This document shows, piece by piece, positions 11,205 through 36,869 of a stretch of DNA of 64,000 nt (positions are counted from its first letter, which is position 1; each line of letters begins with the position of its first letter). This DNA comes from a virus (lineage: Duplodnaviria > Heunggongvirae > Uroviricota > Caudoviricetes), in the IMG/VR virus record IMGVR_UViG_3300020578_005505, one strand, 5' to 3'. Below the pieces are notes generated by a model that did not search any database, was not told the DNA's origin, and was given only the letters and a program-made list of their open reading frames with translations. The translations under genes were made by a program, and so were the position numbers.

Positions 11205-11206
11205 CG

Positions 11207-11280: not shown

Positions 11281-11287
11281 GTATAAG

Positions 11288-13098: not shown

Positions 13099-13269
13099 AA
13101 TACTTTATTTAACTATGTATCATTTTTGTTACCTTTTATAGGCCCGGTCTTTAATTTATTTGAAAAATTTCCTGTATATACACCAGTAGGTTGTACTACT
13201 ATAAAGGTGCTTAATGAAAAAGATATAGATGTAAGTAACGTTTTCATACTCTTTTACATCTATAAATAG

Positions 13270-13677
13270 TGGAGGAGACGGGAATCGAACCCGTGTATCC
13301 ATAAGGAACAATAACACCAGCGTATCACATGCTTAGATCTGCAAGCTGATCAGTAGTTGGGGCCACTAGTTTTGGTTAGCGTGCCTTCCACCACCTAATT
13401 TTACTCTAAACTAGGAAACTCACGGCTCGCAATATGCGTCCGGATGCCGTCTCTATAGCGTACGACTCGCTGCTGTTCTGTTGCGAGGCTATCAGCTGCC
13501 CCAAGCTTACTAAGCCGCGTATGCGTACTCTTCAGCACCTACAAATGCCACTAGGTCATCATAGGTCATTGTTGACATTTCGTCATTTATTGTTTGAAAA
13601 TTTGTTTAAAGGCGACATATCCAAACGCCTGCATGTAGTATTACCTTCACATTACGGAGCAATACCTGGACTCCCCC
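13270..13677 (-). ncRNA. ssrA: tmRNA (SsrA); predicted tag GAEEYAYAA followed by two stop codons
   Basis: Minus strand. 5' GGGGGAG pairs with 3' CTCCTCC including a G3-U70 wobble, plus discriminator A73, which are the alanine identity elements. T arm ACGGG-TTCGATT-CCCGT. Internal reading frame GGT GCT GAA GAG TAC GCA TAC GCG GCT TAG TAA encodes GAEEYAYAA, the same pattern as Bacteroidetes tags such as GENNYALAA. Confidence 0.8.
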
Positions 13678-16258: not shown

Positions 16259-17881
16259 TTAAATTTCTTCATCTTTTTTCTTATCGTCTTTTTTTTCGAA
16301 AATTACTGATTCTGTTGTTAGTATAGTACCTGCTACGGAGGCAGCATTTTCAAGAGCAGTACGTGTGACTTTAGTCGGATCAAGAAGACCTGCTTCAGTT
16401 GCCTCTACTACTTTTTGATTTTTAGCATCATAAGTGTGAGCTGATTCTTGACTTTCATAATTCTTAATTTCACTTAAAATACGGTAGTGATCTTCAATAC
16501 CACAGTTTGTTAAAATTACTTTGAAAGGAGCATGACAAGCTCTTTTAACTATATTCCAACCTTTTTGCTCATCGCTTGATGTTAAAGGTAATTTAATATT
16601 TTCGAATGCTGTAATTAATGCAAGTCCTCCACCAGGAACTACGCCTTCTACTAGAGCTGCTTTAGTAGCAAACAAAGCATCTTCTACCCTATCTTTCTTT
16701 TCTTTAATCTCAATATCGGAATTTCCTCCTACTGAAATAATAGCTACTCCGCCAACTAATTTACCAAGCCTCTCCTGAAGCTTTTCTTTCTCATAAAATG
16801 ATGTAGCTTTTTCAATTTGATCTTTTATCTCTTCAGCTCTTAAGCTTATAGCATCTATATTACCTTTGCCATCAACTATAGTAGTGGTTTCTTTAGATAC
16901 CGTAACAGTTCTTGCGACTCCGAAAAATTCCGTTAACTGTAACGGGGTTATTTTCTCTAGTTTATGTCCTTTATTTTTAGAAATTACCTGTCCCCCGGTT
17001 AAAATAGCTAGATCTTCTAAGATTAAAGTACGGCGTTCCCCAAAGTCAGGAGCTTTTACTCCTGCTACATAAACTATACCGCGCATTTTATTTACTATCA
17101 AAGTAGCAAGCGCTTCGTCTTCTATATCTTCAGCTACTATTAGTAAAGCTTTTTGATCGGAGTTGGCTTTAGTTAACGAATTTAAAATATCAGCAGCTTT
17201 AGTGATACGGCCATCGTAAATAAGAATATAAGGTTCATTCAAGACTGCATGCATTGTAGTATTATTAGTAACGAAGTATGGGGATTTGTATCCTCTATCA
17301 AACTGCATACCTTCTACTATCTCCAAAGCAGTTTCACCTGTTTTAGATTCTTCAATAGTAACAATACCTTCTCTTCCTACTTTTTCAATAGCAGCTGATA
17401 TTAGATTGCCTATCTCAATATCGTTATTTGCAGAGATAGCTGCTACTTGACGAATTTGATCTTGAGAGGAAATATCTTTCGATATTTTTTTTAAGTTATC
17501 GATAACTTCTTTTACGTAAACCTCAATAGCTTTCTTAACCTCTACTGGGTTAGATCCTTGATTAATAAGCTTTAATCCTTCTTCAACCATTGTTGTAGCA
17601 AGAAGAGTAGAGGTAGTAGTTCCGTCTCCTGCTTCATTAGCAGACTTTATGGATACCTGCTTTACTAGCTGGGCACCAAGGTCTTCAACCTGGTCTTCAA
17701 GTTCGTGAAAGGAACGAGCTACTGTAACTCCGTCTTTAGTTACTTTTACTTCGCCAGATTTTTCTTTAATTAACACTGTACGGCCTCCTGGCCCTAAAGT
17801 GGAAGTTACCGATTCATTTAATTTTTTAATACCCGCAAGTAACTTATTTTTTAATTCAATTCCAAATACTGTTGTTGTCAT
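16259..17881 (-). CDS. groEL: Chaperonin GroEL (Cpn60)
   Basis: Full-length GroEL homology, including a GGM-type C-terminal tail variant. The likely true start is [13 protein letters not shown] at 17881, one nucleotide after the GroES stop. The track ORF extends to 17926 through an in-frame upstream ATG. Confidence 0.9.
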
Positions 17882-17882
17882 T

Positions 17883-18254
17883 TTATGATACTTTACTGTT
17901 GTTGTATTTTTCAAAATCAGGATCAACTACTGTCTCTTTAAGAACTGATAAAACACTTAATTGTCCGCTTAATTTTGCGTAGACGTCTTGCTCTTTGCAA
18001 ATAAAATATTCTTCGCTTTCTACAGTGATTCTTAGAGAACCTAGTTTAGGGATAAGAACTTTGTCTCCTAATTCAAGATTTGAAAGTACTAGTTTATCAG
18101 AATTAAAATTATACGTAGCAGAGACAGCAATCACTTCTCCCATCTCAGGCCTCTCTTTTCCTAAATCTGGAATAACAATATTACCATACATTTGTTCCTC
18201 TTCTTCTATAGGTCTTAAAATTAAATACCCATTTAACGGTTGTAACTTCGACAT
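17883..18254 (-). CDS. groES: Co-chaperonin GroES (Cpn10)
   Basis: GroES-like N-terminus (LQPLNGYLILRPIEEEE...GNIVIPD...GEVIAV), directly upstream of groEL. Longer than usual at 123 aa. Confidence 0.65.
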   Translation of the reverse strand: MSKLQPLNGYLILRPIEEEEQMYGNIVIPDLGKERPEMGEVIAVSATYNFNSDKLVLSNLELGDKVLIPKLGSLRITVESEEYFICKEQDVYAKLSGQLSVLSVLKETVVDPDFEKYNNSKVS

Positions 18255-18274
18255 ACTTTTTATTTTAATTTAAT

Positions 18275-18463
18275 TTAAGAAATAATCTCCAAATCTTCAA
18301 CTGTTACTAAAAAATAAAGTAATCCTTCTTTCTTTAATATTGTATCGGCCTGAAGATACTCTTTCCAGACTTCTATTACGGGAAAATCATCTTCCTTAAT
18401 AATTTTTTTAATTAAAAAGAGTTTGCTATTAAATGGAATAAACTGCTTAGTAAGTGTAAACAT
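18275..18463 (-). CDS. Small hypothetical protein
   Basis: 62 aa ORF. Confidence 0.25.
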   Translation of the reverse strand: MFTLTKQFIPFNSKLFLIKKIIKEDDFPVIEVWKEYLQADTILKKEGLLYFLVTVEDLEIIS

Positions 18464-18488
18464 AACTGGTACTTAGTAGGCTACTTAT

Positions 18489-18926
18489 TTAATTCTCAAG
18501 AAAAGCTTTAGGTGTAGTAATAGAAATTTTTCGAGTAGCTTTACCTACAGCAATTGGTATATTTAAAGTCAAAAGACCTTTATCGAGAGATGCTTCAAGG
18601 TTACTTAAGTCGAACTTAGTTGAAATTTTCCAAGTAAGATCAAAACTTGATCTCTTAATACCCTTATAAATTGGATGATTTTCTTCCTGTTGTGCAGGTT
18701 TATCGTAACAAATTCTAAGAGAATCATTCTCAACAGAAATAAGAATATCCTCGACACTAAGGCCTACTGCGGCTATTTCAAAACGAATACCGCTTTTAGT
18801 TTCGAAAATATCAACAGGATGGGTTACTCTCTGCGTAATTGCAGAAAAATGTGCTTGTGCTTCTTTTAGGTCTTTCCATAGCAAGTCAAACGGATCGAGC
18901 TCGAACGCACGAAAAAGTGCTGTCAT
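18489..18926 (-). CDS. Small heat-shock protein (Hsp20/alpha-crystallin family)
   Basis: Alpha-crystallin domain pattern (DIFETKSGIRFEIAAVGLSVEDILISVENDSLRI...GLLTLNIP). Confidence 0.6.
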   Translation of the reverse strand: MTALFRAFELDPFDLLWKDLKEAQAHFSAITQRVTHPVDIFETKSGIRFEIAAVGLSVEDILISVENDSLRICYDKPAQQEENHPIYKGIKRSSFDLTWKISTKFDLSNLEASLDKGLLTLNIPIAVGKATRKISITTPKAFLEN

Positions 18927-22363: not shown

Positions 22364-22539
22364 TTTATTTTTTTAGACTCTACGTATCGAGCCTTTAAAA
22401 TTTCAGTTCTACGTTTAACTGAAGGTTTAATAAAGGTCTTTCTATCTCTTAATTCTTTTATTATTCCTATTTTATTATGTTTATTTTTATATTGCTTCAA
22501 AGCATGTTCAACTGAGCCATTTATATTTACTATTATCAT
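22360..22539 (-). CDS. rpsU: Ribosomal protein bS21 homolog; 59 aa, so below the ORF-track cutoff
   Basis: Manual translation MIIVNINGSVEHALKQYKNKHNKIGIIKELRDRKTFIKPSVKRRTEILKARYVESKKIK. Matches the bS21 pattern ALK(R)YK(R)K...G...ELR.R..F.KPS.KRR...K. Confidence 0.65.
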   Translation of the reverse strand: MIIVNINGSVEHALKQYKNKHNKIGIIKELRDRKTFIKPSVKRRTEILKARYVESKKIK

Positions 22540-22542
22540 ATT

Positions 22543-22866
22543 TTATACTTCTTCTAATATTCCGTCCCTTACTAAATTTAATATATTATTACGAATTTTA
22601 CTTGTTTTAGCTACGTGTATAGTTGTACCTTGCTTAAATAGAGTACTATCGTGCTTAAAATCTTTTAAGACTTTAAATTCTCTGACGGAGTGATTATATG
22701 GAAACAATTCGTTAAGTAGATCCTTACGTCTACTACAACCACAATCTTTAGCCCCCGCTAATTTAGCTAAACCTTCAGCTACTTTATCTATACCTAGAAA
22801 ATTAGTAACCTTAGCAATGGTGTCGCCAAGACCTTCAGATTCTTTATTTGGATCAAAATTTTCCAT
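22543..22866 (-). CDS. Hypothetical protein
   Basis: 107 aa ORF. Confidence 0.3.
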   Translation of the reverse strand: MENFDPNKESEGLGDTIAKVTNFLGIDKVAEGLAKLAGAKDCGCSRRKDLLNELFPYNHSVREFKVLKDFKHDSTLFKQGTTIHVAKTSKIRNNILNLVRDGILEEV

Positions 22867-23023
22867 ATCAAGGGTTACTGCTGTCTAAATTTACTAATAA
22901 TCCGTTCGTAACCACTGCAGTAGAGATTTAAAATTTATCTGAACGCTACTAGTTTGATTCTTTAATGAATAGACCTGTTTCTTAAAGTGTTTAAAAATGT
23001 TTTTACAAATATAAATATATACT

Positions 23024-23560
23024 TTACAGGGAAGATCGCTGCTTATCGTTTTGCCACTGACCGTTATATTCTTCAGCTGGAGTGCATTCGTGAAAATATA
23101 TTTGAGCTACACGAGCGTCTTTTTCGATAAAAATCGTTTGAGTTACTAACATAATTGTTCCTATATTTTCAGTCTCAAAACCAGGATCAAATACGGGCGA
23201 ATTAATTAAAGTACCGTTACGCCATAATGATGATCGTTGTTTAATAAAAGCTACACGATTATCTGGAATTCTACAGCCTTCCCAAAATGCAATATCATAT
23301 GTACCTGGATGCAAAAGCCATCCTTGAACTTCTTCAAGACGAATAGTTTCAACTGGAGTATAAGTAGTTAATTCAGTTTTATTCTTTAAAACTTTACCTA
23401 TCTTGAATTTTCTATATACAAGTTTTTCGTCGATTCCGTTTGGATCACCTACTCTATTTACCTCTTTAAGGGTTATATCATAACCAACTTGAGCTACTTT
23501 ACCTTTAGTATTATCTAACTTAAGTAATCCTTCTTCGAGGATTTGTTGTGCATTTAACAT
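23024..23560 (-). CDS. dCTP deaminase / dUTPase-superfamily protein
   Basis: VGYDITL, DPGFETENIGTIMLV and RVAQIYF resemble the Dcd motifs GYDLRL, DPGF.G and RIAQL.F. Confidence 0.55.
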   Translation of the reverse strand: MLNAQQILEEGLLKLDNTKGKVAQVGYDITLKEVNRVGDPNGIDEKLVYRKFKIGKVLKNKTELTTYTPVETIRLEEVQGWLLHPGTYDIAFWEGCRIPDNRVAFIKQRSSLWRNGTLINSPVFDPGFETENIGTIMLVTQTIFIEKDARVAQIYFHECTPAEEYNGQWQNDKQRSSL

Positions 23561-23569
23561 TTTTGTAAA

Positions 23570-24280
23570 TTATTTCCTAGGGTAACCTTTAATAAACTCA
23601 TAAAATTCAGCTCGTGCAGCATCTTCTACTAAAAAGCATCCTGATAGCTTAGAGGTCTTCATATTAGCACCTTGATGCTTTACACCTCTACAGCTTACAC
23701 AGTTATGAGTTGCTTCAATCATTACTGCAACACCAATATTATCTTCGCAAATTTTATCTACAGCATTATGAATAGCTACAGTTAATTGTTCTTGAATTGA
23801 ACCTCTTCTACTAAAATGCTCTACAATTCGGTTAAGTTTACTTAGACCTACTACCCTACTTTTAAGGGTCGGCACGTAAGCGATATGACACAGGCCGTTA
23901 ATAGTCTGATGATGGTGACTACACATACTCGTAATAGGGATACCTCCTTCAAATACTACTCCGTCATAACCGTCAGCCGGAAAGCTAGTCACAGAATCTA
24001 GCTGCTCATATCTACCTTTCCATAAGTCGTTTACGTAGGCCTTAGCCACTCTCATAGGAGTATTCGAGCTATTAGGGTCGTTTTCCCAGTCAACTCCTAA
24101 AGCAGTTAGAAAATTGCCGTAATGTAAAGAAGCAGCTTCAATAATAAGCTTCTTTTCACCTTCAGTTAAACAATTTCTTCCTTCTTTAATTGCGTCTCGC
24201 AAAAAAGTACTAATACCGTTAGCATGGCCAGCTTGTGCAAGCTCTAGTTTTTCAATTTTAATATGTTTATCTCTACTCAT
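23570..24280 (-). CDS. folE: GTP cyclohydrolase I (FolE)
   Basis: CSHHHQTINGLCHIAYVP...VGLSKLNRIVEHFSRRGSIQEQLT, the conserved FolE core with the Cys/His zinc ligands. Confidence 0.8.
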   Translation of the reverse strand: MSRDKHIKIEKLELAQAGHANGISTFLRDAIKEGRNCLTEGEKKLIIEAASLHYGNFLTALGVDWENDPNSSNTPMRVAKAYVNDLWKGRYEQLDSVTSFPADGYDGVVFEGGIPITSMCSHHHQTINGLCHIAYVPTLKSRVVGLSKLNRIVEHFSRRGSIQEQLTVAIHNAVDKICEDNIGVAVMIEATHNCVSCRGVKHQGANMKTSKLSGCFLVEDAARAEFYEFIKGYPRK

Positions 24281-24283
24281 AAT

Positions 24284-24793
24284 TCAAAGATATAAGGATA
24301 TCGATTTTAAACGTTCTTCTACTGTACCTTTTAATATAACTACTTTTTCTTTAGGAATATAATTTATCATAAATTCTCTTATAACTTGATCTATTTTTAA
24401 TTGCAATTCTTGACTTAAGCGATCAGGATCGGCTTCAAAATCAAACTCAACAGGTATATAAAAAAAACGTTCTACTTGATCTTTAGTTTCTTCAAATAGA
24501 GTAATAAGGTTTTCAATATCAAGATTAGGGGCTAAAATTTGGGAGTAAATAATACAATCAACAATACTTCGAGTACTAATTACATTTTTATGTGTTAAGT
24601 AATTTTGATAAGCCCAAGCAGATAGTTCATTTATTACGTATTGCTTTTCATAACCTGATAATTCCAGCTGCTTGCCTATCTTAATAACAGGTCTTGAGAA
24701 ACCATCAGTAACATAATACCCGGGATAATTAGTAGCAACCTCTTTAAGTAAGGTAGTTTTTCCGGTCCCGTGAGATCCAAGTAATATTTTCAT
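24284..24793 (-). CDS. P-loop NTPase (kinase/ATPase-like) of unknown role
   Basis: Walker A GSHGTGKTTLL at the N-terminus. 169 aa. Embedded in the deazaguanine gene run. Confidence 0.4.
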   Translation of the reverse strand: MKILLGSHGTGKTTLLKEVATNYPGYYVTDGFSRPVIKIGKQLELSGYEKQYVINELSAWAYQNYLTHKNVISTRSIVDCIIYSQILAPNLDIENLITLFEETKDQVERFFYIPVEFDFEADPDRLSQELQLKIDQVIREFMINYIPKEKVVILKGTVEERLKSISLYL

Positions 24794-24821
24794 TTAAATA
24801 TTTTATATAATATATGAATAT

Positions 24822-25388
24822 TTACTGAAAGGTCCAAGTATTCTTAAAAAATTCTACCCAAGTAAGAAGAGACGTAGTCCGTAAAATAGAATATGCTTCG
24901 TCTACAGTTTTTGCGGTATTTTCGATACTAGCTGTTATTATAACTTCCCCTGAATCTAATTCCGGAATTACTTCGTGAATTACTGAGCCGCAAACGGGGT
25001 ACTTTTCATGATTTTTAACAATATCTTCTTGTTTATTAAAGCCTTTTAATTCAGGATAGCGAGTAATGAGTGCAGGATGACCGTTATAAATTTTGCCTTT
25101 GTATTCACTAAAAAACCCAGTAGGTAATATTCTCAAAAATCCATGTAAAGTAATTAGCTTTTTTTCAAGTAGTTCAGGAAAAAGATAATCTTTTAATACA
25201 GGCTTAAACGGTATTGTCTTTATTGTTACACTATTTTCTCCAAAGAATCTCAGGTTATCATCAGATATCTTACTTAATCTATTAGTAACAAGGAGACTAG
25301 GGAGAAACCCGGTTTCTTTAGCTATAGCAATAATCTCGGATCCGGTCTGAGATATTAGTATTCCCCAGTTTTCTTGAACTTTTATCAT
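24822..25388 (-). CDS. PurN/Fmt-like formyltransferase (candidate preQ1-DNA formyltransferase, DpdN-like)
   Basis: NGHPALI resembles the NxHPSLLP motif. GSVIHEVIPELDSGEVIIT carries the catalytic His and Asp region of formyltransferases. Overlaps queF by ATGA. Confidence 0.55.
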   Translation of the reverse strand: MIKVQENWGILISQTGSEIIAIAKETGFLPSLLVTNRLSKISDDNLRFFGENSVTIKTIPFKPVLKDYLFPELLEKKLITLHGFLRILPTGFFSEYKGKIYNGHPALITRYPELKGFNKQEDIVKNHEKYPVCGSVIHEVIPELDSGEVIITASIENTAKTVDEAYSILRTTSLLTWVEFFKNTWTFQ

Positions 25389-26302
25389 TGCCCCATTGCT
25401 TTTGTACTAAACATTCTAACGTTATTTAAAACGCTATTAAGAAGTCTTTCGTTTGAAACACGTACTGGACAGATATCTAAAGAACCTCTACGGGCATATA
25501 ATAACATTACGCTACAGTCTTCTACGTTAGGGTTCGACATAATTTCAGTAAATAACTTCTCGGCACAGAATTCATGAAATTCGTTTACCTCGCGTAAGGA
25601 AATAACAAGCTTTAGCAGTTCTAATTTATTTACAACACCTTGCTTAGTTTTAATAGCAAAGTAAGCAGCTCCAGTATCTTTTTGCTTTGTATGTCGACAT
25701 CTAGATCTTAGAATATTAGTAAAGTACATATACATATTAGGACCACTACCTTCTTTAGTTACTACATTATACTTTCCTTGTCCTTTATAATCAGCAATTT
25801 CCATAGACTCTAATTCTTGGGAGTTTATTTCAGTAAACAAGTCACTATAACCACGGCCTGGATCTTGATTCAATCTAGTATCGTCTCCTGATCTAAAGAA
25901 GCCTACTCTCACTTCAGCTCCAATTGCTTTACTGATATCTTTTTTTACCTGTTTTTCGTAATTGTCGATAGCTTCTTCTAAAGTATCTCCCATCTTACAC
26001 ATATCAAAGGTATTCAAATAGAGTTTAAAAGATTTAGATTCTACCATGAATTCTGAATTTGCAGGGCAGATAACTTTTAAGGTACCTGCTACTGGAAGTC
26101 CATTGCTAAGTAGAAAAGTAGCTTCGTGACAATGCCAAGTATCAAAGCCTACAAATTCATCTCCTTTAATACCCCAATCTTGACGTGCAAGAATACGTGG
26201 CATAGGATTTAACTGTGAAGGATCAAATGTATCTGTATAAACAGCATAGGAATTAGCCGAACCAAGGGTTTTAGAGGCTACATCGGTCATATTACTTAAC
26301 AT
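25385..26302 (-). CDS. queF: NADPH-dependent 7-cyano-7-deazaguanine reductase (QueF, preQ0 to preQ1)
   Basis: VESKSFKLYLNTF, the QueF signature E(S/L)K(S/A)hK(L/Y)(Y/F/W). Confidence 0.7.
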   Translation of the reverse strand: MLSNMTDVASKTLGSANSYAVYTDTFDPSQLNPMPRILARQDWGIKGDEFVGFDTWHCHEATFLLSNGLPVAGTLKVICPANSEFMVESKSFKLYLNTFDMCKMGDTLEEAIDNYEKQVKKDISKAIGAEVRVGFFRSGDDTRLNQDPGRGYSDLFTEINSQELESMEIADYKGQGKYNVVTKEGSGPNMYMYFTNILRSRCRHTKQKDTGAAYFAIKTKQGVVNKLELLKLVISLREVNEFHEFCAEKLFTEIMSNPNVEDCSVMLLYARRGSLDICPVRVSNERLLNSVLNNVRMFSTKAMGQ

Positions 26303-27071
26303 AGGAGCGGAAGGTTTTTACGTTTTCGAAAATTAAATTTATTTGTTCTTCTTTTAGCTTAATATCTAAATTATCAGCTAATTTATCTTTTGGTTTAGAG
26401 GATGTAAGTCCGTTAGGTCCTAATCTATTACCGGACCAGCCGTTGACGATTGGTGAGCTAGTATCAAGAGAATAAATGTAGCGTTGCAAATGACTTTGAT
26501 TATACCTATAGAGTTGAAACTCTACAGGGTTTTGACATCCTAAAAGATGAAACCTATAGGAACCTCCAAAAAACTTATACCTACTGGCATACCACCAATT
26601 CAAAAACCTAAACCGTACAGTTACATGATCAGAATCAGGTACTAGATCGAAAGGCAAGGCAATAATATCAATATCTTTTTCAACATAAAAATCGATACAA
26701 TCAGCAATTTGCTCAAAAGTATCTCCTTGACATACCCCGATATACTTTAAATTATCGGATTTATATTTACCTAAGTACTCTACTGCATTTGCAATAGTTT
26801 GCCTGTAGTCGTTAACCTTATCAGGTAATACAAGGTGGCTAGGTCTAAATTCTTCTCCTAGTTCGTACAACTCTTCCCCGGATATTGATTGACCTAATTC
26901 AAATGCAGAATTATCGAGAATAGAATAAGAGGCTTCTTTAAGCTTCTTTTTATAAAACTCAGTATAACCTCTATCGTTATTTAGTAAATGCCCTAGTACA
27001 TAAGGGTAGTCACTGATTAGGTCATGATAAGGAAATAACTGTTTAGGTATTTCGTGACTTATTTTTGTCAT
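26292..27071 (-). CDS. Putative DpdA-like (tRNA-guanine transglycosylase-fold) DNA 7-deazaguanine transglycosylase
   Basis: 259 aa between queC and queF, with Asp-containing LDNSAFE and LDTSSP segments reminiscent of the TGT fold. Context-driven assignment. Confidence 0.4.
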   Translation of the reverse strand: MTKISHEIPKQLFPYHDLISDYPYVLGHLLNNDRGYTEFYKKKLKEASYSILDNSAFELGQSISGEELYELGEEFRPSHLVLPDKVNDYRQTIANAVEYLGKYKSDNLKYIGVCQGDTFEQIADCIDFYVEKDIDIIALPFDLVPDSDHVTVRFRFLNWWYASRYKFFGGSYRFHLLGCQNPVEFQLYRYNQSHLQRYIYSLDTSSPIVNGWSGNRLGPNGLTSSKPKDKLADNLDIKLKEEQINLIFENVKTFRSYVK

Positions 27072-27958
27072 ATGTTTACTTTTTTATGTTCTAATAATAC
27101 TTGCTCAACATGTGCTCTAGCTACTTCCCAACTTACAGGCCCGTTTTCATCAGCATATTCTACAGGATCGGGACGATCTAGTTTAATAAATGCTTCAATA
27201 CGTTCTACTGATGCAGCTGATTTATAATCTGAATACCATTTAAATGCGTAGGTCTCTGGACGGTAATAATGCTTAATTGGTTTATATGAAGTATTAGTAC
27301 GCTTGTATACTTCGTTAAAGTCTAAGCCTAATTCTTCACAGCAGTCTTCACCATCTACCAGGATATCGTACTTATTCATTTCAAGATAGGGAGTGTAGAC
27401 GCTGACTAACTCTGAATTCCAATTGCCGATTCTAAATGCTTCCATATCAGCGTCTCTAAATTCTTGACGGCAATCCGGATAGATGTCATGATCGCCCGCA
27501 TGCACACCTAATGCAATCATAACATTCTGTCCTATAGTGCAATCATCAGTTATTGGCCTGGTAGCAATAGATAAAGCTACTGCCTGTATAATTGAACTAA
27601 AGATCTTATTCCGGTTAGGAACTACTGTCTCTTTCATATTCTCTTGTTGATAGTGGCCCTCCGGTACATCTTGTCCGCCTTCAACTAATGCTGAATTAAG
27701 TAGTTCTTGTAATCCTTTTAATTTAATAGTTTGATGTGTTACAAAATAAGGATAATCTACTGTTTTAGATTCTTCGTCTACAACACAATATGAATTGATG
27801 TACTTTACTAATGATTGAGCACGCTCTAATTCAACACGATGTTTTTGTCCATAATCAAAAGATAGAGCTGTTACTTCGTAACCGTTAGCTAATAAATGAA
27901 GAAGTAATGACGAAGAATCCATCCCGCCACTAAGTGAAAGCACAACTTGTTTTTTCAT
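27068..27958 (-). CDS. queC: 7-cyano-7-deazaguanine synthase (QueC-like PP-loop ATPase)
   Basis: PP-loop VLSLSGGMDSSSLL (SGGxDS) at the N-terminus. Longer C-terminal region than the bacterial enzyme. Confidence 0.65.
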   Translation of the reverse strand: MKKQVVLSLSGGMDSSSLLLHLLANGYEVTALSFDYGQKHRVELERAQSLVKYINSYCVVDEESKTVDYPYFVTHQTIKLKGLQELLNSALVEGGQDVPEGHYQQENMKETVVPNRNKIFSSIIQAVALSIATRPITDDCTIGQNVMIALGVHAGDHDIYPDCRQEFRDADMEAFRIGNWNSELVSVYTPYLEMNKYDILVDGEDCCEELGLDFNEVYKRTNTSYKPIKHYYRPETYAFKWYSDYKSAASVERIEAFIKLDRPDPVEYADENGPVSWEVARAHVEQVLLEHKKVNI

Positions 27959-28009
27959 CTGTTAAAAATTTAAATAAAGAGCGTATTATTTTATTATCCG
28001 ATTAGCTCC

Positions 28010-28222
28010 TTAACCGGCTTTTTTATCTTCTTTACTACCGAGATCTTTCTGAATAGAAATTATTTGATTGGTAACACCAGATACTAAGGTACCTAATTGC
28101 TCCCAAATCCTGTCACATTCGTTCTGCAGTTTTTTAATTGCTACCCATTGAATTACTTGTAAAACAATTAAAAGTACTATTATACCTATATAAATTGTTT
28201 CTTTTGTTAAAGTTATTGTCAT
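28010..28222 (-). CDS. Small membrane protein
   Basis: Single transmembrane helix, 70 aa. Confidence 0.3.
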   Translation of the reverse strand: MTITLTKETIYIGIIVLLIVLQVIQWVAIKKLQNECDRIWEQLGTLVSGVTNQIISIQKDLGSKEDKKAG

Positions 28223-28233
28223 CTTTTAATATA

Positions 28234-28491
28234 CTAATTTTCTACTGAGTCTTCAAAATCTCCACGCATAAATTCGTAAGCTTCAGGCGTTCCAGGAAAG
28301 GCTATAAAATCGGGACGCTCCATAACTCTCTTTAAAATCTTTATTGTAAGATCTCTGTCCTTAGTGTCTATGACTAAGGGTTCGAAAACAAATTCAGATT
28401 CTACATCATTTTTATAAGTCAGATAGTATAGGCTACCGGCACCGACGTGCTTAATTGCTTCGTAAAAACTTTCAGCTGTTGTCTTTTTCAT
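28234..28491 (-). CDS. Hypothetical protein
   Basis: 85 aa ORF. Confidence 0.3.
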   Translation of the reverse strand: MKKTTAESFYEAIKHVGAGSLYYLTYKNDVESEFVFEPLVIDTKDRDLTIKILKRVMERPDFIAFPGTPEAYEFMRGDFEDSVEN

Positions 28492-29419
28492 ATAACGAAT
28501 TTATATATTCTTTTAAACGATCTACAGGCTGCCATCCTAGACGCTCAATAGCGTCGTTATTTAGTCTAATAGTTTCACGGTAATTTCCCTTTTGCTCAGA
28601 TATTAATATTTTTTCGCATTTAAACTTTTTAATAAACATATCTGCTACCTCATTGATCGAATAATTTTTACCTGTACCAAGCTCCCAAGCATCCTCATGC
28701 TTTTCATTCGATTCGGCTACTCTAATCAATCCGTCTACAATATCATCTATATAGGTAAAGTCACGGCGTTGTTCTCCGTCACCTATAATTGTTATAGGAT
28801 TATTTTTTCTAATTTGTGCTCTCCAAACTCCAATGACTGCAGCCATATGCGAATCTACTAATTCGCCTCTTCCATATACGTTATAGAATCTGACTATCTC
28901 TGCATTTAAACCATATACTCCTTTAAGCATCTTAATCCATTCTTCTCCCATATGTTTTGTTAATGCATAAGGAGAAATCAACGGATCATGGTGTCTTGAA
29001 GACGATCCTGCATATATTAACTTAGCATTAGCTTTTTTTGCATATCGAGCTACTTCTACTGTTCCGACTGTATTGATTGAGATTGTTAGCTGCTCAGCCT
29101 TAAATGATGGTTGTATTCTACTTAATGCTGCTAAATGAAATATATACTTATACTCTTTTAAAGGTATATTTTCCATTGCTCTCACATCACCTCCTAAAAA
29201 GCTTGAACCTTTAGCTATTTTTGCTTCTCTACCAATATAAAAGTTATCGATAATATCTACTTCGTAACCCCTGCGCAATAAGTCTTTTGTTAAAGCATAG
29301 CCAATAAATCCACATCCGCCTGTTACAAGTACTTTTCTATTTACCATACCCCTACCGCTCTTTTTAGTAATCCACTTATACATAAAGTTAGCATCTAGAG
29401 TTGGTTGTGTAGCTATCAT
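28472..29419 (-). CDS. NAD-dependent nucleotide-sugar epimerase/dehydratase (SDR family)
   Basis: VLVTGGCGFIGYAL Rossmann motif and a YxxxK-type catalytic region. 315 aa. Confidence 0.7.
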   Translation of the reverse strand: MIATQPTLDANFMYKWITKKSGRGMVNRKVLVTGGCGFIGYALTKDLLRRGYEVDIIDNFYIGREAKIAKGSSFLGGDVRAMENIPLKEYKYIFHLAALSRIQPSFKAEQLTISINTVGTVEVARYAKKANAKLIYAGSSSRHHDPLISPYALTKHMGEEWIKMLKGVYGLNAEIVRFYNVYGRGELVDSHMAAVIGVWRAQIRKNNPITIIGDGEQRRDFTYIDDIVDGLIRVAESNEKHEDAWELGTGKNYSINEVADMFIKKFKCEKILISEQKGNYRETIRLNNDAIERLGWQPVDRLKEYINSLYEKDNS

Positions 29420-29420
29420 T

Positions 29421-29756
29421 TTAATTAAAAGTATCCCAAAATAATTTTCTAACCTTTGCTCCTAACTCTTGATCATTAGGTGTAGATTTAACTGTATGAA
29501 ATGATACTAAAAAATGTTTTAAGTGATCATTTGGTGGATCAATAGGTTCTATTAACTTATTGCAAACTTGGGGTTGATAGCAACCTTGTCCTGCTCCTTC
29601 TACATATCCATACCTTAGATCAATATGAGTTGATCTTGTATAAGGTGTCTTTTTACCACATATCAAACACTCATCATAGTTATCATCGTTAACTGATCCT
29701 ACAGCTATAACATAGCCTTTATCATCAATTTTAAGAGGTACGTGTTGTTGTCCCAT
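29421..29756 (-). CDS. Cys-containing hypothetical protein
   Basis: CLICGKK...C...C. The C-terminus shares PNDQELGAKVRKLF with ORF 10204-10515. Confidence 0.3.
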   Translation of the reverse strand: MGQQHVPLKIDDKGYVIAVGSVNDDNYDECLICGKKTPYTRSTHIDLRYGYVEGAGQGCYQPQVCNKLIEPIDPPNDHLKHFLVSFHTVKSTPNDQELGAKVRKLFWDTFN

Positions 29757-29922
29757 ATTATAAAGAATTTAAAAGTTCTTTAATTCTCTCTTCTAATACA
29801 TTGACTGTAGTGCGAAGATGACCTGTATCAGTAGGTTCAAATCTTGATCTTAATACTTGTATCTCAGCAAGTAAAAATTCAATATGTTGTTTTTTGTCTT
29901 TAATTTCCATTTCGTAAAATTT

Positions 29923-30129
29923 TTAATTTATTACAATTATTTCTCCGGGATTATGAGCTGGAGTGTGATATTTAAATTTATGTTTATCTAATATATTTAT
30001 AGTTAGTTTTTTCATTCTTTCAGAATATCCTGTTATTATTCTAAACGGAGTATTATTTATTAAAATAAAATTTTCAACTAAATCTTGTAAATCATAACGG
30101 GATATACCATGAAGATCTAACTCTTTCAT
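29923..30129 (-). CDS. Hypothetical protein
   Basis: 68 aa ORF. Confidence 0.3.
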   Translation of the reverse strand: MKELDLHGISRYDLQDLVENFILINNTPFRIITGYSERMKKLTINILDKHKFKYHTPAHNPGEIIVIN

Positions 30130-30700
30130 AAATCCTTAGTTTGATTGAAAACATCTACGATCATATAAATCATAAGAGCAGATATTCCAATAATAAAAAT
30201 TAAAAATATAATATCATCCATTTATTGTTTTTTACTATTAATAAAATTTATTAAGCTTAACATTGTTGGGGGCCATAAACCAATAAATATTGCTTTATGT
30301 GGTTCATTTTGAACTAAGTAAATATATTCAGTAACGAAAATACAAGCTATAGTTACTATAAGAATAAGAAGTTCACTAGTGCTGAATTTTTTCATGTTTT
30401 ATTTTTTTATAGAGTTATTAATATCTTCTATTGTTATTAATGTAAGGTAGGATAGTATTATAATTATAAAAAATTTTGATAATCCAATTCCTATCATAAT
30501 TTTAATTTTTATCAATTAATGTATCAACTAATACATAACCAAAGAACATAAAGCCTATTGGTAAACTAATCTCAAAACCTATTCCTACTGATAATCCTAG
30601 TCCAATAATTAATTTAATTGCTTTTAAAGCATCACTAATAATTCGTTTTGACCAGAAACTATAATAGTTTTTCATATTATACATTTAATGTTATTTTATA
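30130..30700 (-). other. Cluster of four or more tiny hydrophobic single-TM peptide genes (about 30-60 aa each)
   Basis: Manual minus-strand translation gives MDDIIFLIFIIGISALMIYMIVDVFNQTKDL (stop overlapping the next ATG), MKKFSTSELLILIVTIACIFVTEYIYLVQNEPHKAIFIGLWPPTMLSLINFIN..., MIGIGLSKFFIIIILSYLTLITIEDINNSIKK, plus the 60-aa track ORF 30502-30684. Confidence 0.45.
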
Positions 30701-30883
30701 ACTAGCATCAAATACTTCTTCCCAAAACGGCTTTTCTTCTGTTCCATAATTCTCATATACCTTTCCATCTAAACCTAGTACTATTGTTCCCGGTCCAAAA
30801 TTATTACCTTGTATAAAATTATTTTCATTAAATATACATTTTCTTTCTACTGTTTCTTCATCAAATATTACTGTTATTTTCAT
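30677..30883 (-). CDS. Hypothetical protein
   Basis: 68 aa ORF. Confidence 0.3.
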   Translation of the reverse strand: MKITVIFDEETVERKCIFNENNFIQGNNFGPGTIVLGLDGKVYENYGTEEKPFWEEVFDASYKITLNV

Positions 30884-30884
30884 A

Positions 30885-31721
30885 TTATACGTTTAATGTT
30901 TTATTCCAAGCGGCAATATGTAAACGTGTTAATCCTCTGAATCTATACTTCTTAGCCATCTCTAAACAGAATTGAGTACGCTCTTCAAAATCCTTAACAT
31001 CATCTAAACCAGGCATACACACTACATTTTTAAGTGGTATATCTAACGGTTTAACAAAATCTTCAAATATTTCTATAACATCATTTTCAGTACTAATAAC
31101 AAATTTAAACTGGTAATTACTATGTTCCATAATACGTCTAAGACCAGCTTCAACAAAACGTTGCTTTTTAGTCATACCTGAATTAGCTAGTTTAGGTGAG
31201 CAGTTAATTTGATCTAAAATATTAAAGAGATCTTCTTCAATAACTACAGTGCCATTTGTTTCAACTTCATTAAAGACTTTGTAGTTTTCAAAGTTTTCTA
31301 TAGTACTCCAATACTTAAAGAAGTTAGTTATAGCTTCCTGATGACCTTTAATTGTAGGCTCACCACCAGTCCAAATGATATGTATATTACCGTTTTTAAT
31401 ATCGTCATATACGCCTTGTCCTTTCCATCTATTAATTAAATACTGGAACTCTTTTTCTTCTCCTCTCCATAACCACTGACTTGTAGAATCACAAGTCCAA
31501 GTTGCTTTACCTTCTTTAACTAAATCACCTTCAAATATTTCTCCATCTTCTAATGATGCTTCTTTTGCTAAATTATTAGCAAATGCTCTACTCATGCCGC
31601 AGGTTAGATTACATATACCTAAACGGACAAAGTATGAAGGTACACCTGATGATATACCTTCACCTTGGATAGAGTAAAAGTCACTAGAAATTAATAGTTT
31701 ATGCGGATCGATTTTGCTCAT
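30885..31721 (-). CDS. queE: 7-carboxy-7-deazaguanine synthase (QueE, radical SAM)
   Basis: YSIQGEGISSGVPSYFVRLGICNLTC and WTGGEPT, the QueE N-terminal signature and cluster-binding region. Confidence 0.65.
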   Translation of the reverse strand: MSKIDPHKLLISSDFYSIQGEGISSGVPSYFVRLGICNLTCGMSRAFANNLAKEASLEDGEIFEGDLVKEGKATWTCDSTSQWLWRGEEKEFQYLINRWKGQGVYDDIKNGNIHIIWTGGEPTIKGHQEAITNFFKYWSTIENFENYKVFNEVETNGTVVIEEDLFNILDQINCSPKLANSGMTKKQRFVEAGLRRIMEHSNYQFKFVISTENDVIEIFEDFVKPLDIPLKNVVCMPGLDDVKDFEERTQFCLEMAKKYRFRGLTRLHIAAWNKTLNV

Positions 31722-32263
31722 ACGCTTTCGTTTACTGGAATTATTTTAGACTGGTGTGTTGCATCTTGAATTATACGTATAGAACTGGCAATTTGTAGAT
31801 CAGTTAATGTAACTTTTTCTACTTTGATTCCCCATTTTTTTACAAACTTTCCTACCTCAAAGGTTAACTTTTTATCAATTTCAATAATATTAACCCACTC
31901 CGTATCTTCTATAATATCTCGAATCATTCCCCCGGTAGTATCAGTAAGGACGTCTTGGGGCTGGGTTATAGTTAGCAGAAAAGTTTTTATGTCAACTATT
32001 GTAAATCGAATAATACCTTTTACTACTACATTTTTGTTATCGGCAGTAGTTATCGATTGAGGGGGTATATCGATTGACTGTGTAATTGTTGCATGTTTCC
32101 AAACAGAATCAAAGAATGGCATTTTAAAATATAGTCCTGGTTTGACTGTTTTAATATATTTTCCATTACGTAATACAATAGCCTCCTCCCATTCATCAAT
32201 AATGAATACAGGCCACAGTTCGTATATGAACTGCTGTATAAGGGATATTAATTTATCAAACAT
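31718..32263 (-). CDS. SPFH/Band-7 (stomatin/prohibitin-like) domain protein
   Basis: GLYFKMPFFDSV...QSIDIPPQSITTADNKNVVVKGIIRF...WGIKVEKVTLTDLQI fits the SPFH domain pattern. Confidence 0.5.
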   Translation of the reverse strand: MFDKLISLIQQFIYELWPVFIIDEWEEAIVLRNGKYIKTVKPGLYFKMPFFDSVWKHATITQSIDIPPQSITTADNKNVVVKGIIRFTIVDIKTFLLTITQPQDVLTDTTGGMIRDIIEDTEWVNIIEIDKKLTFEVGKFVKKWGIKVEKVTLTDLQIASSIRIIQDATHQSKIIPVNESV

Positions 32264-32613
32264 TATTGACGTTGCTTCGCTTTAAGCTTTTTGCGCTTAA
32301 GAGCCTTCTCGCTAATAGTCTGCCCTTTTTTTCCCATCTCTACCTCATATTTTTCAGTTTTACGGCTAACAGCTTTCCATTCAGACTTAGGAATAAACTT
32401 CCAAATACTACCGACCTTAGCATCGGCTTGACGATCGTCTACTCGTTGGATATCACCAGTATTGATATTTTTAATGCACTTCATAGGTTTTAACCTCCAT
32501 GTTTTAATATAATTAAATATATGATTAATCTGCGGATATTCCAAAAAAATACCTAAAATAGTTGGATGCTGTTCTCCGCAAAGACCGAGGGAGTGTATAA
32601 CTGATTCAAACAT
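32263..32613 (-). CDS. Hypothetical protein
   Basis: 116 aa ORF. Confidence 0.3.
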   Translation of the reverse strand: MFESVIHSLGLCGEQHPTILGIFLEYPQINHIFNYIKTWRLKPMKCIKNINTGDIQRVDDRQADAKVGSIWKFIPKSEWKAVSRKTEKYEVEMGKKGQTISEKALKRKKLKAKQRQ

Positions 32614-32617
32614 TTTT

Positions 32618-32884
32618 TTATTTATAAGATTGTAGTTTCATTTTTAATCTATTGATCATAATTTGACAATACCATTTTCCCATATTACTAGAAGCATTTT
32701 TGTATTTTTTTTCCCACTCTACTATCTTACGCATGATAGGCACATTAGCTTTATTCTTAATATCATTATAGTAGTAACAGTTATTTTCTAACATAGCTTC
32801 TTCCAAATTTCCTTCACTGCACGGAGGAGGTTGCTGTACCATAAGTTCCTTACCTTCGGCTTTTTTAGATTTTTTTATAGGCAT
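32618..32884 (-). CDS. Hypothetical protein
   Basis: 88 aa ORF. Confidence 0.3.
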   Translation of the reverse strand: MPIKKSKKAEGKELMVQQPPPCSEGNLEEAMLENNCYYYNDIKNKANVPIMRKIVEWEKKYKNASSNMGKWYCQIMINRLKMKLQSYK

Positions 32885-32893
32885 ATAGCTAGT

Positions 32894-33358
32894 TTATTCG
32901 AAATAAGATGCTGAATTTTTATTGTTCTCCATAAATTCTACTTTTACTACTCTAACTCTACCGCTAGATTCTTCTTGAACAAATCTATTAACCCTCTCGA
33001 AAATAAATTTCGCAAACTGTTCGGCGCCGACTGTTGGAAGTATCCTTAGTTGGATAATCCCCTCTTTATCCATATTATGAAAATAAGAACGATATGGATC
33101 ATCTTCAGCTATAACAGTTGTATGATCAAACATATAATCCATCCATTCTTTAGGCTTCATACCATCAATATTACCTTTAGCACGCTTCATACCTCCAAAA
33201 TCCCAAACCCAATTGCGTTCATCTAGTTCACCCTCAAACCATACTCTGAATGATACTCCATAGCCATGCAAAAAGCGGCAATGGGTCGCGTCTGCTTTCC
33301 ATTGACGAAATACGCAGCTATATCCGTCAAATAACTTAGTTGATTGGAATATAGTCAT
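32894..33358 (-). CDS. queD: 6-carboxy-5,6,7,8-tetrahydropterin synthase (QueD)
   Basis: CRFLHGYGVSF, the CxxxHGH zinc/catalytic motif of QueD/PTPS. 154 aa. Confidence 0.7.
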   Translation of the reverse strand: MTIFQSTKLFDGYSCVFRQWKADATHCRFLHGYGVSFRVWFEGELDERNWVWDFGGMKRAKGNIDGMKPKEWMDYMFDHTTVIAEDDPYRSYFHNMDKEGIIQLRILPTVGAEQFAKFIFERVNRFVQEESSGRVRVVKVEFMENNKNSASYFE

Positions 33359-33378
33359 AATAGATTATTTATAATAAT

Positions 33379-33576
<198 letters not shown>

Positions 33577-33585
33577 TTACTCTGT

Positions 33586-35925
33586 TTAGATTCCAAGGCT
33601 TGCTGTTACCCATCCGGTTACACTGTTTCCTGTATAGATCCATAGCTCGTTAGCGGCAGGATTAACATACATACTACCGGTAGCTGGATTTGCATCTGTT
33701 TGAGCAGGTACTATAAAGCTTCCAGTCACGATGAAAGAACCGGTTACTGTTAGAGGGCCGCCAACTATACCTACGGATCCGCTAATTATATGGCTATCTG
33801 TGAGGCTAGTACCTAACGATACCGCGTTTTTAGATAGAATGCTTCCTGAAACTGTTAATACGTGGTCTCTTCCATTTTGTTGTGAATAAGTGTAGTTGGT
33901 ACTGCCGTCTTCGAGAGAAAAGTTGTTACTTATGATAGTATAGATCGGAATTTTTCCTTCGCCAGCTCCAAAAGATCCTCCAATTAGAGTATCTGCTTGT
34001 TGCCTTACGAGTTTAATTGCACCGGCGGGGATATTTCCTGCAGCATTTGGTACTGCGTGTCCTATATTAGTATCGTTATAATAAAAAGTATATCCTAGCG
34101 TGCTTGCAGTACTAAGATAAACGTCTCCGCGGAGAATAGTACCAAAAGCAGGTACTTGTGTTCCGCCAAACTTAATACTTGCCCAGTTAGTTCCTACTAC
34201 TGAATTGCCTTGAATGTAATCAGTGCCTATTATCGAGCCGGTTACTGTTAGTCCGTTTGCATAGTTACCGCTTCCGCTTACGTCTAATGTATATTGAGGT
34301 AGTGATTTATTGATGCCTACCTTTGCTTGAGTCATTGATCCAGAGAAGCCAGTATTATTAATGTCTCCATAAGAGCCGGTTGCAAAAATTACACCACCTA
34401 TATTTATAGAATCTTTTCTATTATTTTGCAGGGTTATACCGGTTCCGATAATAATATTGTTAGTACCTATCTGATTTTCTCCCGGATTTCCTGGGAATAA
34501 ATATCCAGCTCTATACCCTATTATTGTAGAGTAAGAAGCAGTACTAGCTTGATTCCCTGCAAACTGTCCGATAAAGGTTGAATTAGAAGCAGAAACGGCT
34601 GCATATCCTGCATTCTCACCAACAAAGAAAGAGCCTTCAGCTTCTCTTGCTCCTGATCCAGCAGAAGTACCTAGGAATGTTGCTCCGGCAGCATTTGTAG
34701 CTTCGTTTCCTGCATTAGCACCTATGAAAATAGAGGTTTGAGCATTAGTAGCAAAATGGCCTGCTTGATATCCTATAAAAGTAGAATTGCTAGCGTTAGT
34801 TGCTCCTTGACCTGCCGAGTTACCTAGGAAGTTAGATAGATGAGCAGAGGTCGCATTAACTCCTGCATTTGGTCCTATGAAGTTAGAATTATAAGCATTA
34901 GTAGAGCCGGATCCTGCAAACTCGCCTAAAAAGTTTGAGTGATTTGCCCCGTTTGCTCCATATCCAGCCTGGTTGCCTAAGAAGTTGGAATCGGTGGCAG
35001 TAGTGGCTTGAAAACCTGCCGAGTTACCTAGGAAGTTGGAATCGGTGGCATTAGTGGCTTGAAAACCTGCCGAGTTACCTAGGAAGTTAGAGTGATTAGC
35101 ATTGGTCGCATCAACTCCTGCCGAGTTACCTAGGAAGTTAGATTGATTAGCATTGGTCGCATTATTTCCTGCATTTGTTCCAATGAAACTTGAAAAACTT
35201 GCGGTTGCTGCTCCTGCTCCTGCGTTTAATCCAATAAAATTTGAATTATTGGCTTCTCCTGCATTTTGACCGGCATTAGTACCGATAAAATTTGAGAACT
35301 GTGCGTTGGTAGCTGTATATCCTGCTGCATTGCCGATCATCACAGAGTTACCGGCTCCTGGTACAATATACCCTGCTACATCCCCAATAAACACCGAAGA
35401 CGAAGCGTTAGTAGAGTTTTGACCGGTTCCGTTATTTCCAATAGCTACAGTTCTAATTGCATTAGTAGCAGATTGTCCGGCTGCATATCCTATAAAAATA
35501 CCTTGGCCAGCATTACTGTTACCTGCTCCTGCAGCTACTCCTATAGCTACCATATTATCTGATCCGTTACTACCGTTACCGGCATTGAGCCCTAAAAATA
35601 TACCGTCTGTAGTATCGAACGCAGTTGTAGGAGGGATCGTTGAATATATTGAAGATCCGCTACTTGATACTGCAAGTACTACGTTAGCTCCTGGTGCATA
35701 CGATGCTGATACGGCAAACGAGCTGCTTACTGCAAAAGAAGCTGATACAGCATTCAATACGAAGCTAGCCGTTTGTGCAGTTATAGACGATGTTACTTGT
35801 GGTAACGAGTTTGCTAGATTCGTTATAGATAATTTCGAAGTCGTAGCTGTAGCTACTACAGGTAACACATCAGTACTTGTTACTGAAGTAACTGCAGGAA
35901 GTTGGGATATTCTTACGTTTGCCAT
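33586..35925 (-). CDS. Gly/Asn/Ala-rich repetitive tail fiber or fibrous virion protein
   Basis: 779 aa. The central region is built from about 17-aa repeats (NFLGNSAGFQATNATDS...) and the DNA shows perfect 51-bp periodicity. N- and C-terminal domains are unique. Confidence 0.55.
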   Translation of the reverse strand: MANVRISQLPAVTSVTSTDVLPVVATATTSKLSITNLANSLPQVTSSITAQTASFVLNAVSASFAVSSSFAVSASYAPGANVVLAVSSSGSSIYSTIPPTTAFDTTDGIFLGLNAGNGSNGSDNMVAIGVAAGAGNSNAGQGIFIGYAAGQSATNAIRTVAIGNNGTGQNSTNASSSVFIGDVAGYIVPGAGNSVMIGNAAGYTATNAQFSNFIGTNAGQNAGEANNSNFIGLNAGAGAATASFSSFIGTNAGNNATNANQSNFLGNSAGVDATNANHSNFLGNSAGFQATNATDSNFLGNSAGFQATTATDSNFLGNQAGYGANGANHSNFLGEFAGSGSTNAYNSNFIGPNAGVNATSAHLSNFLGNSAGQGATNASNSTFIGYQAGHFATNAQTSIFIGANAGNEATNAAGATFLGTSAGSGAREAEGSFFVGENAGYAAVSASNSTFIGQFAGNQASTASYSTIIGYRAGYLFPGNPGENQIGTNNIIIGTGITLQNNRKDSINIGGVIFATGSYGDINNTGFSGSMTQAKVGINKSLPQYTLDVSGSGNYANGLTVTGSIIGTDYIQGNSVVGTNWASIKFGGTQVPAFGTILRGDVYLSTASTLGYTFYYNDTNIGHAVPNAAGNIPAGAIKLVRQQADTLIGGSFGAGEGKIPIYTIISNNFSLEDGSTNYTYSQQNGRDHVLTVSGSILSKNAVSLGTSLTDSHIISGSVGIVGGPLTVTGSFIVTGSFIVPAQTDANPATGSMYVNPAANELWIYTGNSVTGWVTASLGI
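34930..35190 (-). repeat. In-frame 51-bp tandem repeats within the tail-fiber gene
   Basis: gaagttggaatcggtggca recurs at 34981 and 35032. aggaagttag recurs at 35081 and 35132. Units are near-identical. Confidence 0.7.
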
Positions 35926-36269: not shown

Positions 36270-36869
36270 TTATTTAACCCATGTTCTTTGATTATAGTGA
36301 TAAGCGAGGCTACAGTTTTGATCATCGTAGATCTGACTGCTATCAAAAAATTTAACATCATCTCTACTTAAACACCACTCAGTAAGTGCGTATACGCTGA
36401 ATGGTTCAGCCTGATCTTCTCTTAAATTAGTACGAGCTAAACAATACTCTATATATTTTTTAGTTAATCCAGGTCTAGCTAAGATAACATAATCATCTAA
36501 AAGATATATCTTTTTAGGGGGGGTGTAAGAATAGTAGCTATTCCTTCGGACGAAAATTAAATTACAATTATCAAAAAGACTATAAACTGAATCGAAATTC
36601 GCTTTCCATTCTATATCAAAATCACAGCAGATACCGCCTTTATAATTTAATACTAAATACTTTGCAAGCTGTAGCTTATGGAAAACCGTAGAGGATAAAA
36701 ATAAATTGCTAAACTCTCCAAGAATCGGGATCAACTTATCCTCAGTCCAGATTTCGAAATTGTATCCTGTATTCGATTCTTTAGCTCTATTATAATTCTT
36801 AATAAAACGTTCAGGAATATCTTTATCGCCAACCCATATATAATGTACAAAATTATTATACGATTTCAC
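36270..36869 (-). CDS. Putative glycosyltransferase (GT32/DXD sugar-binding region-like)
   Basis: N-terminal HYIWVGDKDIPE resembles the Gly_transf_sug motif. DxD-like CDFD. Confidence 0.4.
   Translation of the reverse strand: MKSYNNFVHYIWVGDKDIPERFIKNYNRAKESNTGYNFEIWTEDKLIPILGEFSNLFLSSTVFHKLQLAKYLVLNYKGGICCDFDIEWKANFDSVYSLFDNCNLIFVRRNSYYSYTPPKKIYLLDDYVILARPGLTKKYIEYCLARTNLREDQAEPFSVYALTEWCLSRDDVKFFDSSQIYDDQNCSLAYHYNQRTWVK

Follow-up and report, generated by a model that had tools for sequence, protein, structure and literature searches.

The formyltransferase gene of the window, by which we mean the whole 64,000-nucleotide stretch of viral DNA analysed here, is placed by sequence comparison as a divergent member of the DpdN family and encodes a predicted preQ1/dPreQ1 formyltransferase. 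We consider it probable that this protein formylates the amine of preQ1 with N10-formyl-THF and that, combined with the phage preQ1 pathway and a DpdA3-type transglycosylase, it gives rise to fdPreQ1 in place of guanine. The idea of a formylated preQ1 is not new and was published in 2023 for phage immuto, in whose DNA fdPreQ1 amounts to 345,000 per 10^6 nt, while neither a dG peak nor dPreQ1 was detected (NAR 2023, PMC10516641). In that study, Cui, Hutinet et al. gave the name DpdN to the PF00551 protein in the immuto cluster and proposed it to be a preQ1 or dPreQ1 formylase (PMC10516641). DpdN was described there from four sequences, and its function is a prediction from annotation and context (PMC10516641). 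Our literature search found no paper after 2023 that names DpdN or fdPreQ1.

Gene organization of the deazaguanine cluster

The 188-aa ORF extends on the minus strand from an ATG start to a TAA stop. It matches 373 database clusters (90% identity) at E<=1e-3 in a word-indexed search, with a best value of E=1.8e-119, and is therefore a real gene and not a chance ORF. The surrounding gene string encodes the complete FolE-QueD-QueE-QueC-QueF pathway together with DpdA3 within 23570..33358 (Table 1). The QueF protein carries the motif ESKSFKLY at residue 88 and matches TIGR03138 with E=1.4e-51, which is below the cutoff of that model. The DpdA3-type ORF gave no match in the Pfam search; it is homologous to the DpdA3 proteins of phages with complete guanine replacement, namely immuto, the Campylobacter phage CP220 (E=2e-22 by tblastn), and the Cellulophaga phage phiST (E=8e-5 by tblastn).

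Table 1. Annotated features of the window, in order of position
Feature	Position	Strand	Evidence and remarks
tRNA-Met (CAT), followed after 6 nt by a further tRNA call with a four-base anticodon (aaat)	11206..11360	-	Second call by ARAGORN only; Rfam confirms tRNA-Met only
tmRNA, phage-encoded	13267..13677	-	ARAGORN, tag peptide AEEYAYAA; Rfam RF00023, 56.2 bits vs gathering score 47
Chaperone set: GroEL-like Cpn60, GroES-like, HSP20-like	16259..18926	-	Adjoins family A DNA polymerase
dCTP-deaminase/dUTPase-superfamily protein, cluster end	23024..23560	-	Pfam DCD E=6.4e-15; in most related loci
FolE, GTP cyclohydrolase I	23570..24280	-	Pfam GTP_cyclohydroI E=6.1e-44
AAA_28 P-loop protein, nucleoside/nucleotide-kinase fold (predicted)	24284..24793	-	Pfam AAA_28 E=1.5e-9
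DpdN-like formyltransferase, 188 aa	24822..25388	-	PF00551; 36% identity to YP_010114479.1; AF2/Foldseek
QueF, 305 aa, bimodular preQ0 reductase (makes preQ1)	25385..26302	-	Pfam QueF_N E=6.6e-25, QueF E=1.8e-9
DpdA3-type transglycosylase, 259 aa	26292..27071	-	34% identity, E=1e-41 to immuto DpdA (pairwise)
QueC, preQ0 synthase	27068..27958	-	Pfam QueC E=3.5e-36
NAD-dependent epimerase/dehydratase	28472..29419	-	Between QueC and QueE
QueE, 7-carboxy-7-deazaguanine synthase	30885..31721	-	phrog_2076 'QueE-like radical SAM' E=1.3e-36; no Pfam match
SPFH/Band 7 family protein	31718..32263	-	Directly upstream of QueE, 4-nt overlap
QueD, 6-carboxytetrahydropterin synthase	32894..33358	-	Pfam PTPS E=1.8e-14
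Weak glycosyltransferase match (DXD sugar-binding region)	36270..36869	-	Under Pfam cutoff; overlaps 5' end of class II ribonucleotide reductase gene

The initial annotation stated that the ORF overlaps queF by 4 nt, and this is borne out. The minus-strand junction reads ...GCA ATG GGG CAA TGA TAA AAG TTC..., in which the formyltransferase ATG and the TGA stop of the upstream ORF, identified as QueF by Pfam, share the four nucleotides ATGA. Since QueC/DpdA3 and DpdA3/QueF in the same string overlap as well (by 4 and 11 nt, respectively), the overlap with queF is nothing distinctive in this tightly packed phage gene string. Operon boundaries were not obtained from a promoter and terminator scan of 22500..34000, because the predicted sites were no more numerous than in shuffled sequence. 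A search for near-identical DNA with the segment 22000..28000 against isolate phages gave no match. The G+C content of the window is ~34%, and its source phage is known from metagenomes only.

Fold and active site of the formyltransferase

The 188-aa protein matches the Pfam family PF00551 (Formyl_trans_N) with 38.5 bits against a gathering score of 26.1 (E=1.3e-9), and all significant matches in a PDB sequence search were PurN, with 3KCQ at the top (E=4e-12). The AlphaFold2 model, for which 54 homologues served as input, comprises one domain with a mean pLDDT of 93.5, and its top 25 Foldseek matches in the PDB were all GAR transformylases (TM 0.71-0.74 for the best). The protein thus represents the short single-domain form and not the longer 'group 3' formylase type. 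Residues N102, H104, and D145 align with N106, H108, and D144 of PurN and are invariant in the alignment of the 54 family sequences and in that with the Acinetobacter PurN. The folate-binding segment G83-x-L85-R86 is kept as well, and its G83, L85, and R86 are invariant across the 54 family members. The previous description of the gene as a PurN-like formyltransferase therefore stands: the PF00551 match is significant, the predicted fold is that of a GAR transformylase and not a different one, and the alignment with PurN retains the catalytic Asn, His, and Asp.

The E. coli PurN sequence used for comparison scores 186 bits against the database-derived Acinetobacter PurN. The latter comes from a record named 'Acinetobacter phage MD-2021a' (L091, CAKLQF020000007.1), in which the bacterial-type genes purM-purN, hda, htrB, and sppA were found at the purN match. 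This 'phage purN' is probably a cellular gene, and it served as a PurN outgroup only.

PurN takes its formyl group from N10-formyl-THF. Because the fold, the Asn-His-Asp triad, and the folate-binding strand-loop of the window protein match those of PurN (E. coli 1CDE/1GAR, human GART, and Anaplasma 3KCQ), N10-formyl-THF is by analogy the likely formyl donor of the window protein too.

Relationship to DpdN of phage immuto

Among isolate phages, the best match of the window protein is YP_010114479.1, the DpdN prototype from phage immuto, which aligns over 94% of the query with 36% identity (E=1e-21); the next-best E-value among the matches is 6e-9. The protein scores 87 bits against immuto DpdN compared to 40 bits against PurN, and DpdN outscores PurN for all of the 150 best cluster representatives; this placement refers to scores against PurN and the immuto prototype, the latter a member of group 1 in the 2023 paper (PMC10516641). 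The motifs SQTGSE, TLHG[FWY]LRI, YNGHP[AG]LI, and YPELKG are common to the window protein and immuto DpdN and absent from PurN.

Both phages encode the short single-domain PF00551 protein together with DpdA3, the FolE-QueF pathway, and an AAA_28 kinase-like gene, and in both the cluster lies near the genes for a family A DNA polymerase and for GroES/GroEL. This arrangement of chaperone and family A DNA polymerase genes recurs in immuto and in related metagenome contigs. The gene order differs, being DpdA3-QueF-DpdN-AAA_28 in the window and DpdA3-x-DpdN-AAA_28-QueF in immuto. Moreover, the DNA chemistry was measured for immuto, whereas that of the window phage is predicted from its genes. The earlier prediction of a tailored base gains support from the best isolate match being the DpdN of an fdPreQ1 phage and from the complete deazaguanine cluster of the window.

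Distribution and genomic context of the DpdN family

When 1.84 billion representatives (clusters at 50% identity) were searched exhaustively with phmmer, 273 matched at E<=1e-10, of which 17 reached E<=1e-30. A relative of the window DpdN is encoded on 433 IMG/VR viral contigs, and a survey of 185,579 species with one genome per species revealed only eight DpdN loci, six of them in MAG records. DpdA3 lies beside the gene in five of these eight loci, four of which also contain QueF. The DpdN family is almost exclusively viral.

In 85 loci, genes were annotated by comparison with the window and immuto proteins; many of these loci are close relatives, and the following counts are therefore not independent. 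Flanking DNA of at least 2.5 kb was available on either side of the gene in 54 related loci, of which 52 contain DpdA3 and all 54 contain QueF. QueF is located directly upstream of DpdN, as in the window, in 31 of these 54 loci, and DpdA3 takes that position, as in immuto, in 16. The AAA_28 gene directly follows DpdN in 62 of the 76 loci with at least 1.5 kb downstream. The stable neighbours of DpdN are therefore DpdA3 and the AAA_28 gene, and adjacency to QueF is one of two arrangements. As for the proposed coupling to queF, the 4-nt overlap is present in the window, but coupling is not a trait of the family, since QueF is directly upstream in 31 and DpdA3 in 16 of the 54 loci.

DpdN-like genes with 37-38% identity were also found on two cyanobacterial (Microcoleus) contigs of 130-154 kb (L099 and L100, match at 8001..8519), where DpdA3, QueF, and AAA_28 were not detected within 8 kb of the gene. 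These Microcoleus genes may belong to a different functional group.

Kinase-like partner and fusion proteins

The AAA_28 protein encoded next to DpdN has a PHROG match annotated as 'thymidylate kinase'. A PDB sequence search with this protein returned noise only, and matches were obtained by the fold search: its AF2 model (pLDDT 88) resembles thymidylate kinase, the ribosylnicotinamide-kinase domain of NadR, and deoxynucleoside kinases (TM 0.6-0.72). According to this model, the AAA_28 partner has a small-molecule kinase fold.

Several proteins join these partners in one chain. DpdN is fused to AAA_28 in the metagenome proteins P0180, P0217, and P0231, and a P-loop domain is fused to DpdN in P0150. 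DpdA3~DpdN fusions of ~447-454 aa occur as single ORFs in P0199, P0209 (L094 554..1897), and L098 (7212..8576); the contig with the L098 fusion is 130 kb long and was assigned to the bin of a Lachnospiraceae MAG, and AAA_28 and a DCD-like gene flank the fusion. Two of the fusions were looked up and each is on one short contig. A frameshift artefact is possible, though there are several mutually distant examples.

An AAA_28 homologue, with 27% identity along the entire protein (E=8e-8), directly follows DpdA3 in the Campylobacter phages CP220 and CC_R7 (L087 6813..7355 and L086 5989..6531), and neither phage is among the isolate-phage matches to DpdN. There are other partner genes as well: in CP220, a gene for an HD+AAA_33 kinase lies a short way upstream of DpdA3; in phiST, DpdA3 is closely preceded by a MazG-like gene and a P-loop gene of the AAA_18 type; and the immuto cluster contains a PRA-PH/MazG-like gene and a phosphoribosyltransferase. 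Matches to AAA_28 in Bacteroides phages sit among unannotated genes. A gene of predicted dNTP-pyrophosphatase type is present in every DpdA3 cluster examined, being DCD/dUTPase-like in the window, MazG-like in phiST, PRA-PH-like in immuto, and HD+kinase in CP220 (23024..23560 on the minus strand of the window, L089 3555..4142, L001 7320..7844, and L087 4862..5893). Kinases go unmentioned in the 2023 DpdN paper (PMC10516641), and a literature search for kinases or a nucleotide-pool route in connection with 7-deazaguanines brought up no publication; the literature searched contains no discussion of the kinases and pyrophosphatases that recur as partners of DpdA3 and DpdN.

Proposed function of the DpdN-like protein

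[quoted passage not shown] DpdA3, encoded two genes upstream, would act together with DpdN to yield phage DNA with guanine replaced by fdPreQ1, and restriction enzymes would be blocked by such DNA. A preQ1 species as the acceptor is suggested by analogy with the fdPreQ1 chemistry of phage immuto, and from this combination of genes we infer fdPreQ1 in the DNA of the window phage. A different acceptor in the window clade is possible because the identity to the prototype DpdN is 36%. In the section 'Prediction of a preQ1 formyltransferase' of the 2023 paper, the likely formyl donor is given as '5-methyl-5,6,7,8-tetrahydrofolate' (PMC10516641); this name is probably a slip that goes back to the ligand in the M. 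tuberculosis structure cited there.

We lean towards a small molecule as the substrate of DpdN, formylated before its incorporation. A small-molecule substrate is favoured because DpdN is a minimal PurN fold with no added nucleic-acid-binding domain, because both DpdN (pI 6.4) and DpdA3 (pI 5.2-6.1) are slightly acidic, because DpdN has a nucleoside/nucleotide-kinase-like protein as a linked or fused partner, and because formylation in immuto is complete, with no dPreQ1 left, whereas methylation by DpdM affects only ~5% of dPreQ1 (PMC10516641, Table 1 therein). None of these arguments is decisive. DpdM, the dPreQ1 N-methyltransferase of the Cellulophaga phage phiSM and the Vibrio phage VH7D, likewise decorates the 7-aminomethyl nitrogen of preQ1 (PMC10516641), but its fold is unrelated, its chemistry is of the SAM type, and DNA is its proposed substrate.

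Alternative functions

Public annotations ('phosphoribosylglycinamide formyltransferase') and PHROG 9240 describe proteins of this kind as PurN, and the fold and the catalytic triad of the window protein are those of PurN; the gene would in that case be an auxiliary metabolic gene for an ordinary GAR transformylase that boosts purine synthesis. However, the score of the protein against TIGR00639, the equivalog model of PurN, is 53.3 bits where the cutoff is 150.1, and the protein is ~20 residues shorter than PurN. Differences also concern the GAR site, for which we take from the E. coli structure literature that the phosphate loop G11-S12-N13 of PurN binds GAR and that E173 contacts the ribose hydroxyls. 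With these roles assumed, the window protein has T15-G16-S17-E18 at the GAR-phosphate loop, E18 replacing N13, and R170 at the position aligned with E173, which is basic in most family members. The replacement by E18 could argue against phosphate binding at the loop and for recognition of the deazaguanine ring. The genomic context differs as well, since no pur genes were seen near the window gene, a genuine purM-purN pair looks different, and a deazaguanine cluster surrounds the gene in essentially every related locus. In its predicted structure, the window protein has the PurN/GAR-transformylase fold, yet it is not PurN, and we regard a role in purine synthesis as extremely unlikely.

The remaining explanations assign another reaction or another acceptor to the same catalytic core. 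Weak matches to the PurU profile, PurU structures among the Foldseek matches, and the use of the same triad by PurU would fit a PurU-like hydrolase or deformylase of formyl-THF or of a formylated intermediate, or else a transferase of another one-carbon or acyl unit. Such an activity is highly improbable, given that the protein attains 16 bits against a PurU cutoff of 286 and contains no ACT domain, and that no chemistry other than N-formylation has been observed in a phage that encodes a homologue (PMC10516641). Formylation of another amine, such as that of an amino-sugar nucleotide by WbkC or ArnA, could draw on the epimerase/dehydratase encoded between QueC and QueE in the same gene string, a gene that could point to glycosylated DNA or a surface modification, and on the sugar N-formyltransferases among the lower Foldseek matches. 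The epimerase, however, is missing at that position in two related contigs (L002 and L004), which have only small ORFs without a Pfam match there, whereas DpdA3 and QueF are nearly always present. In the Foldseek ranking, the sugar N-formyltransferases come much lower than PurN (TM ~0.6 for the query and ~0.5 for the target), and they possess a further C-terminal subdomain, which is missing from the window protein. We therefore consider a sugar substrate very unlikely, and formylation of preQ1 remains the preferred function of the window DpdN.

Nucleotide-pool model and implications

The published model of DpdA3 action is a post-replicative exchange of bases in DNA (PMC10516641). A tentative alternative, which we consider rather unlikely at present, is that the complete replacement of guanine by 7-deazaguanines takes place before replication, at the level of the nucleotide pool, rather than through an exchange of bases in finished DNA. 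We put it forward because the trio DpdA3-DpdN-AAA_28 is conserved and sometimes fused, and is accompanied by a dNTP-pyrophosphatase-type gene and a phage DNA polymerase. Under this model, DpdA3 would act on dG or dGMP and exchange the guanine for preQ1. DpdN would formylate the dPreQ1 nucleotide, which as a 5'-phospho(deoxy)ribosyl amine is similar to GAR, the substrate of PurN. The kinase would then phosphorylate the product towards the triphosphate, and an enzyme of the DCD, MazG, or HD type would remove dGTP.

Pre-replicative nucleotide-modification pathways are represented by phage T4, with dCTPase, dCMP hydroxymethylase, and dNMP kinase, and by the Z-genome phages, with MazZ, PurZ, and DatZ. 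Like these systems, DpdA3 clusters combine a base-changing enzyme, a small kinase-like protein, a dNTP-pyrophosphatase-type protein, and a phage DNA polymerase. Unlike in these systems, the action of DpdA3-cluster proteins on nucleotides is putative, and the published DpdA3 model is post-replicative.

The DpdN family is much larger than the four sequences of 2023, and its members are almost always encoded by viruses, together with DpdA3 and QueF. The wider family and its context strengthen the published functional prediction and supply many sequences for assay. The kinase and pyrophosphatase partners make the question of pre- versus post-replicative modification directly testable, and should the AAA_28 partner prove to be a genuine kinase that acts on deazaguanine nucleosides or nucleotides, the post-replicative model now accepted for complete guanine replacement would have to be revised.
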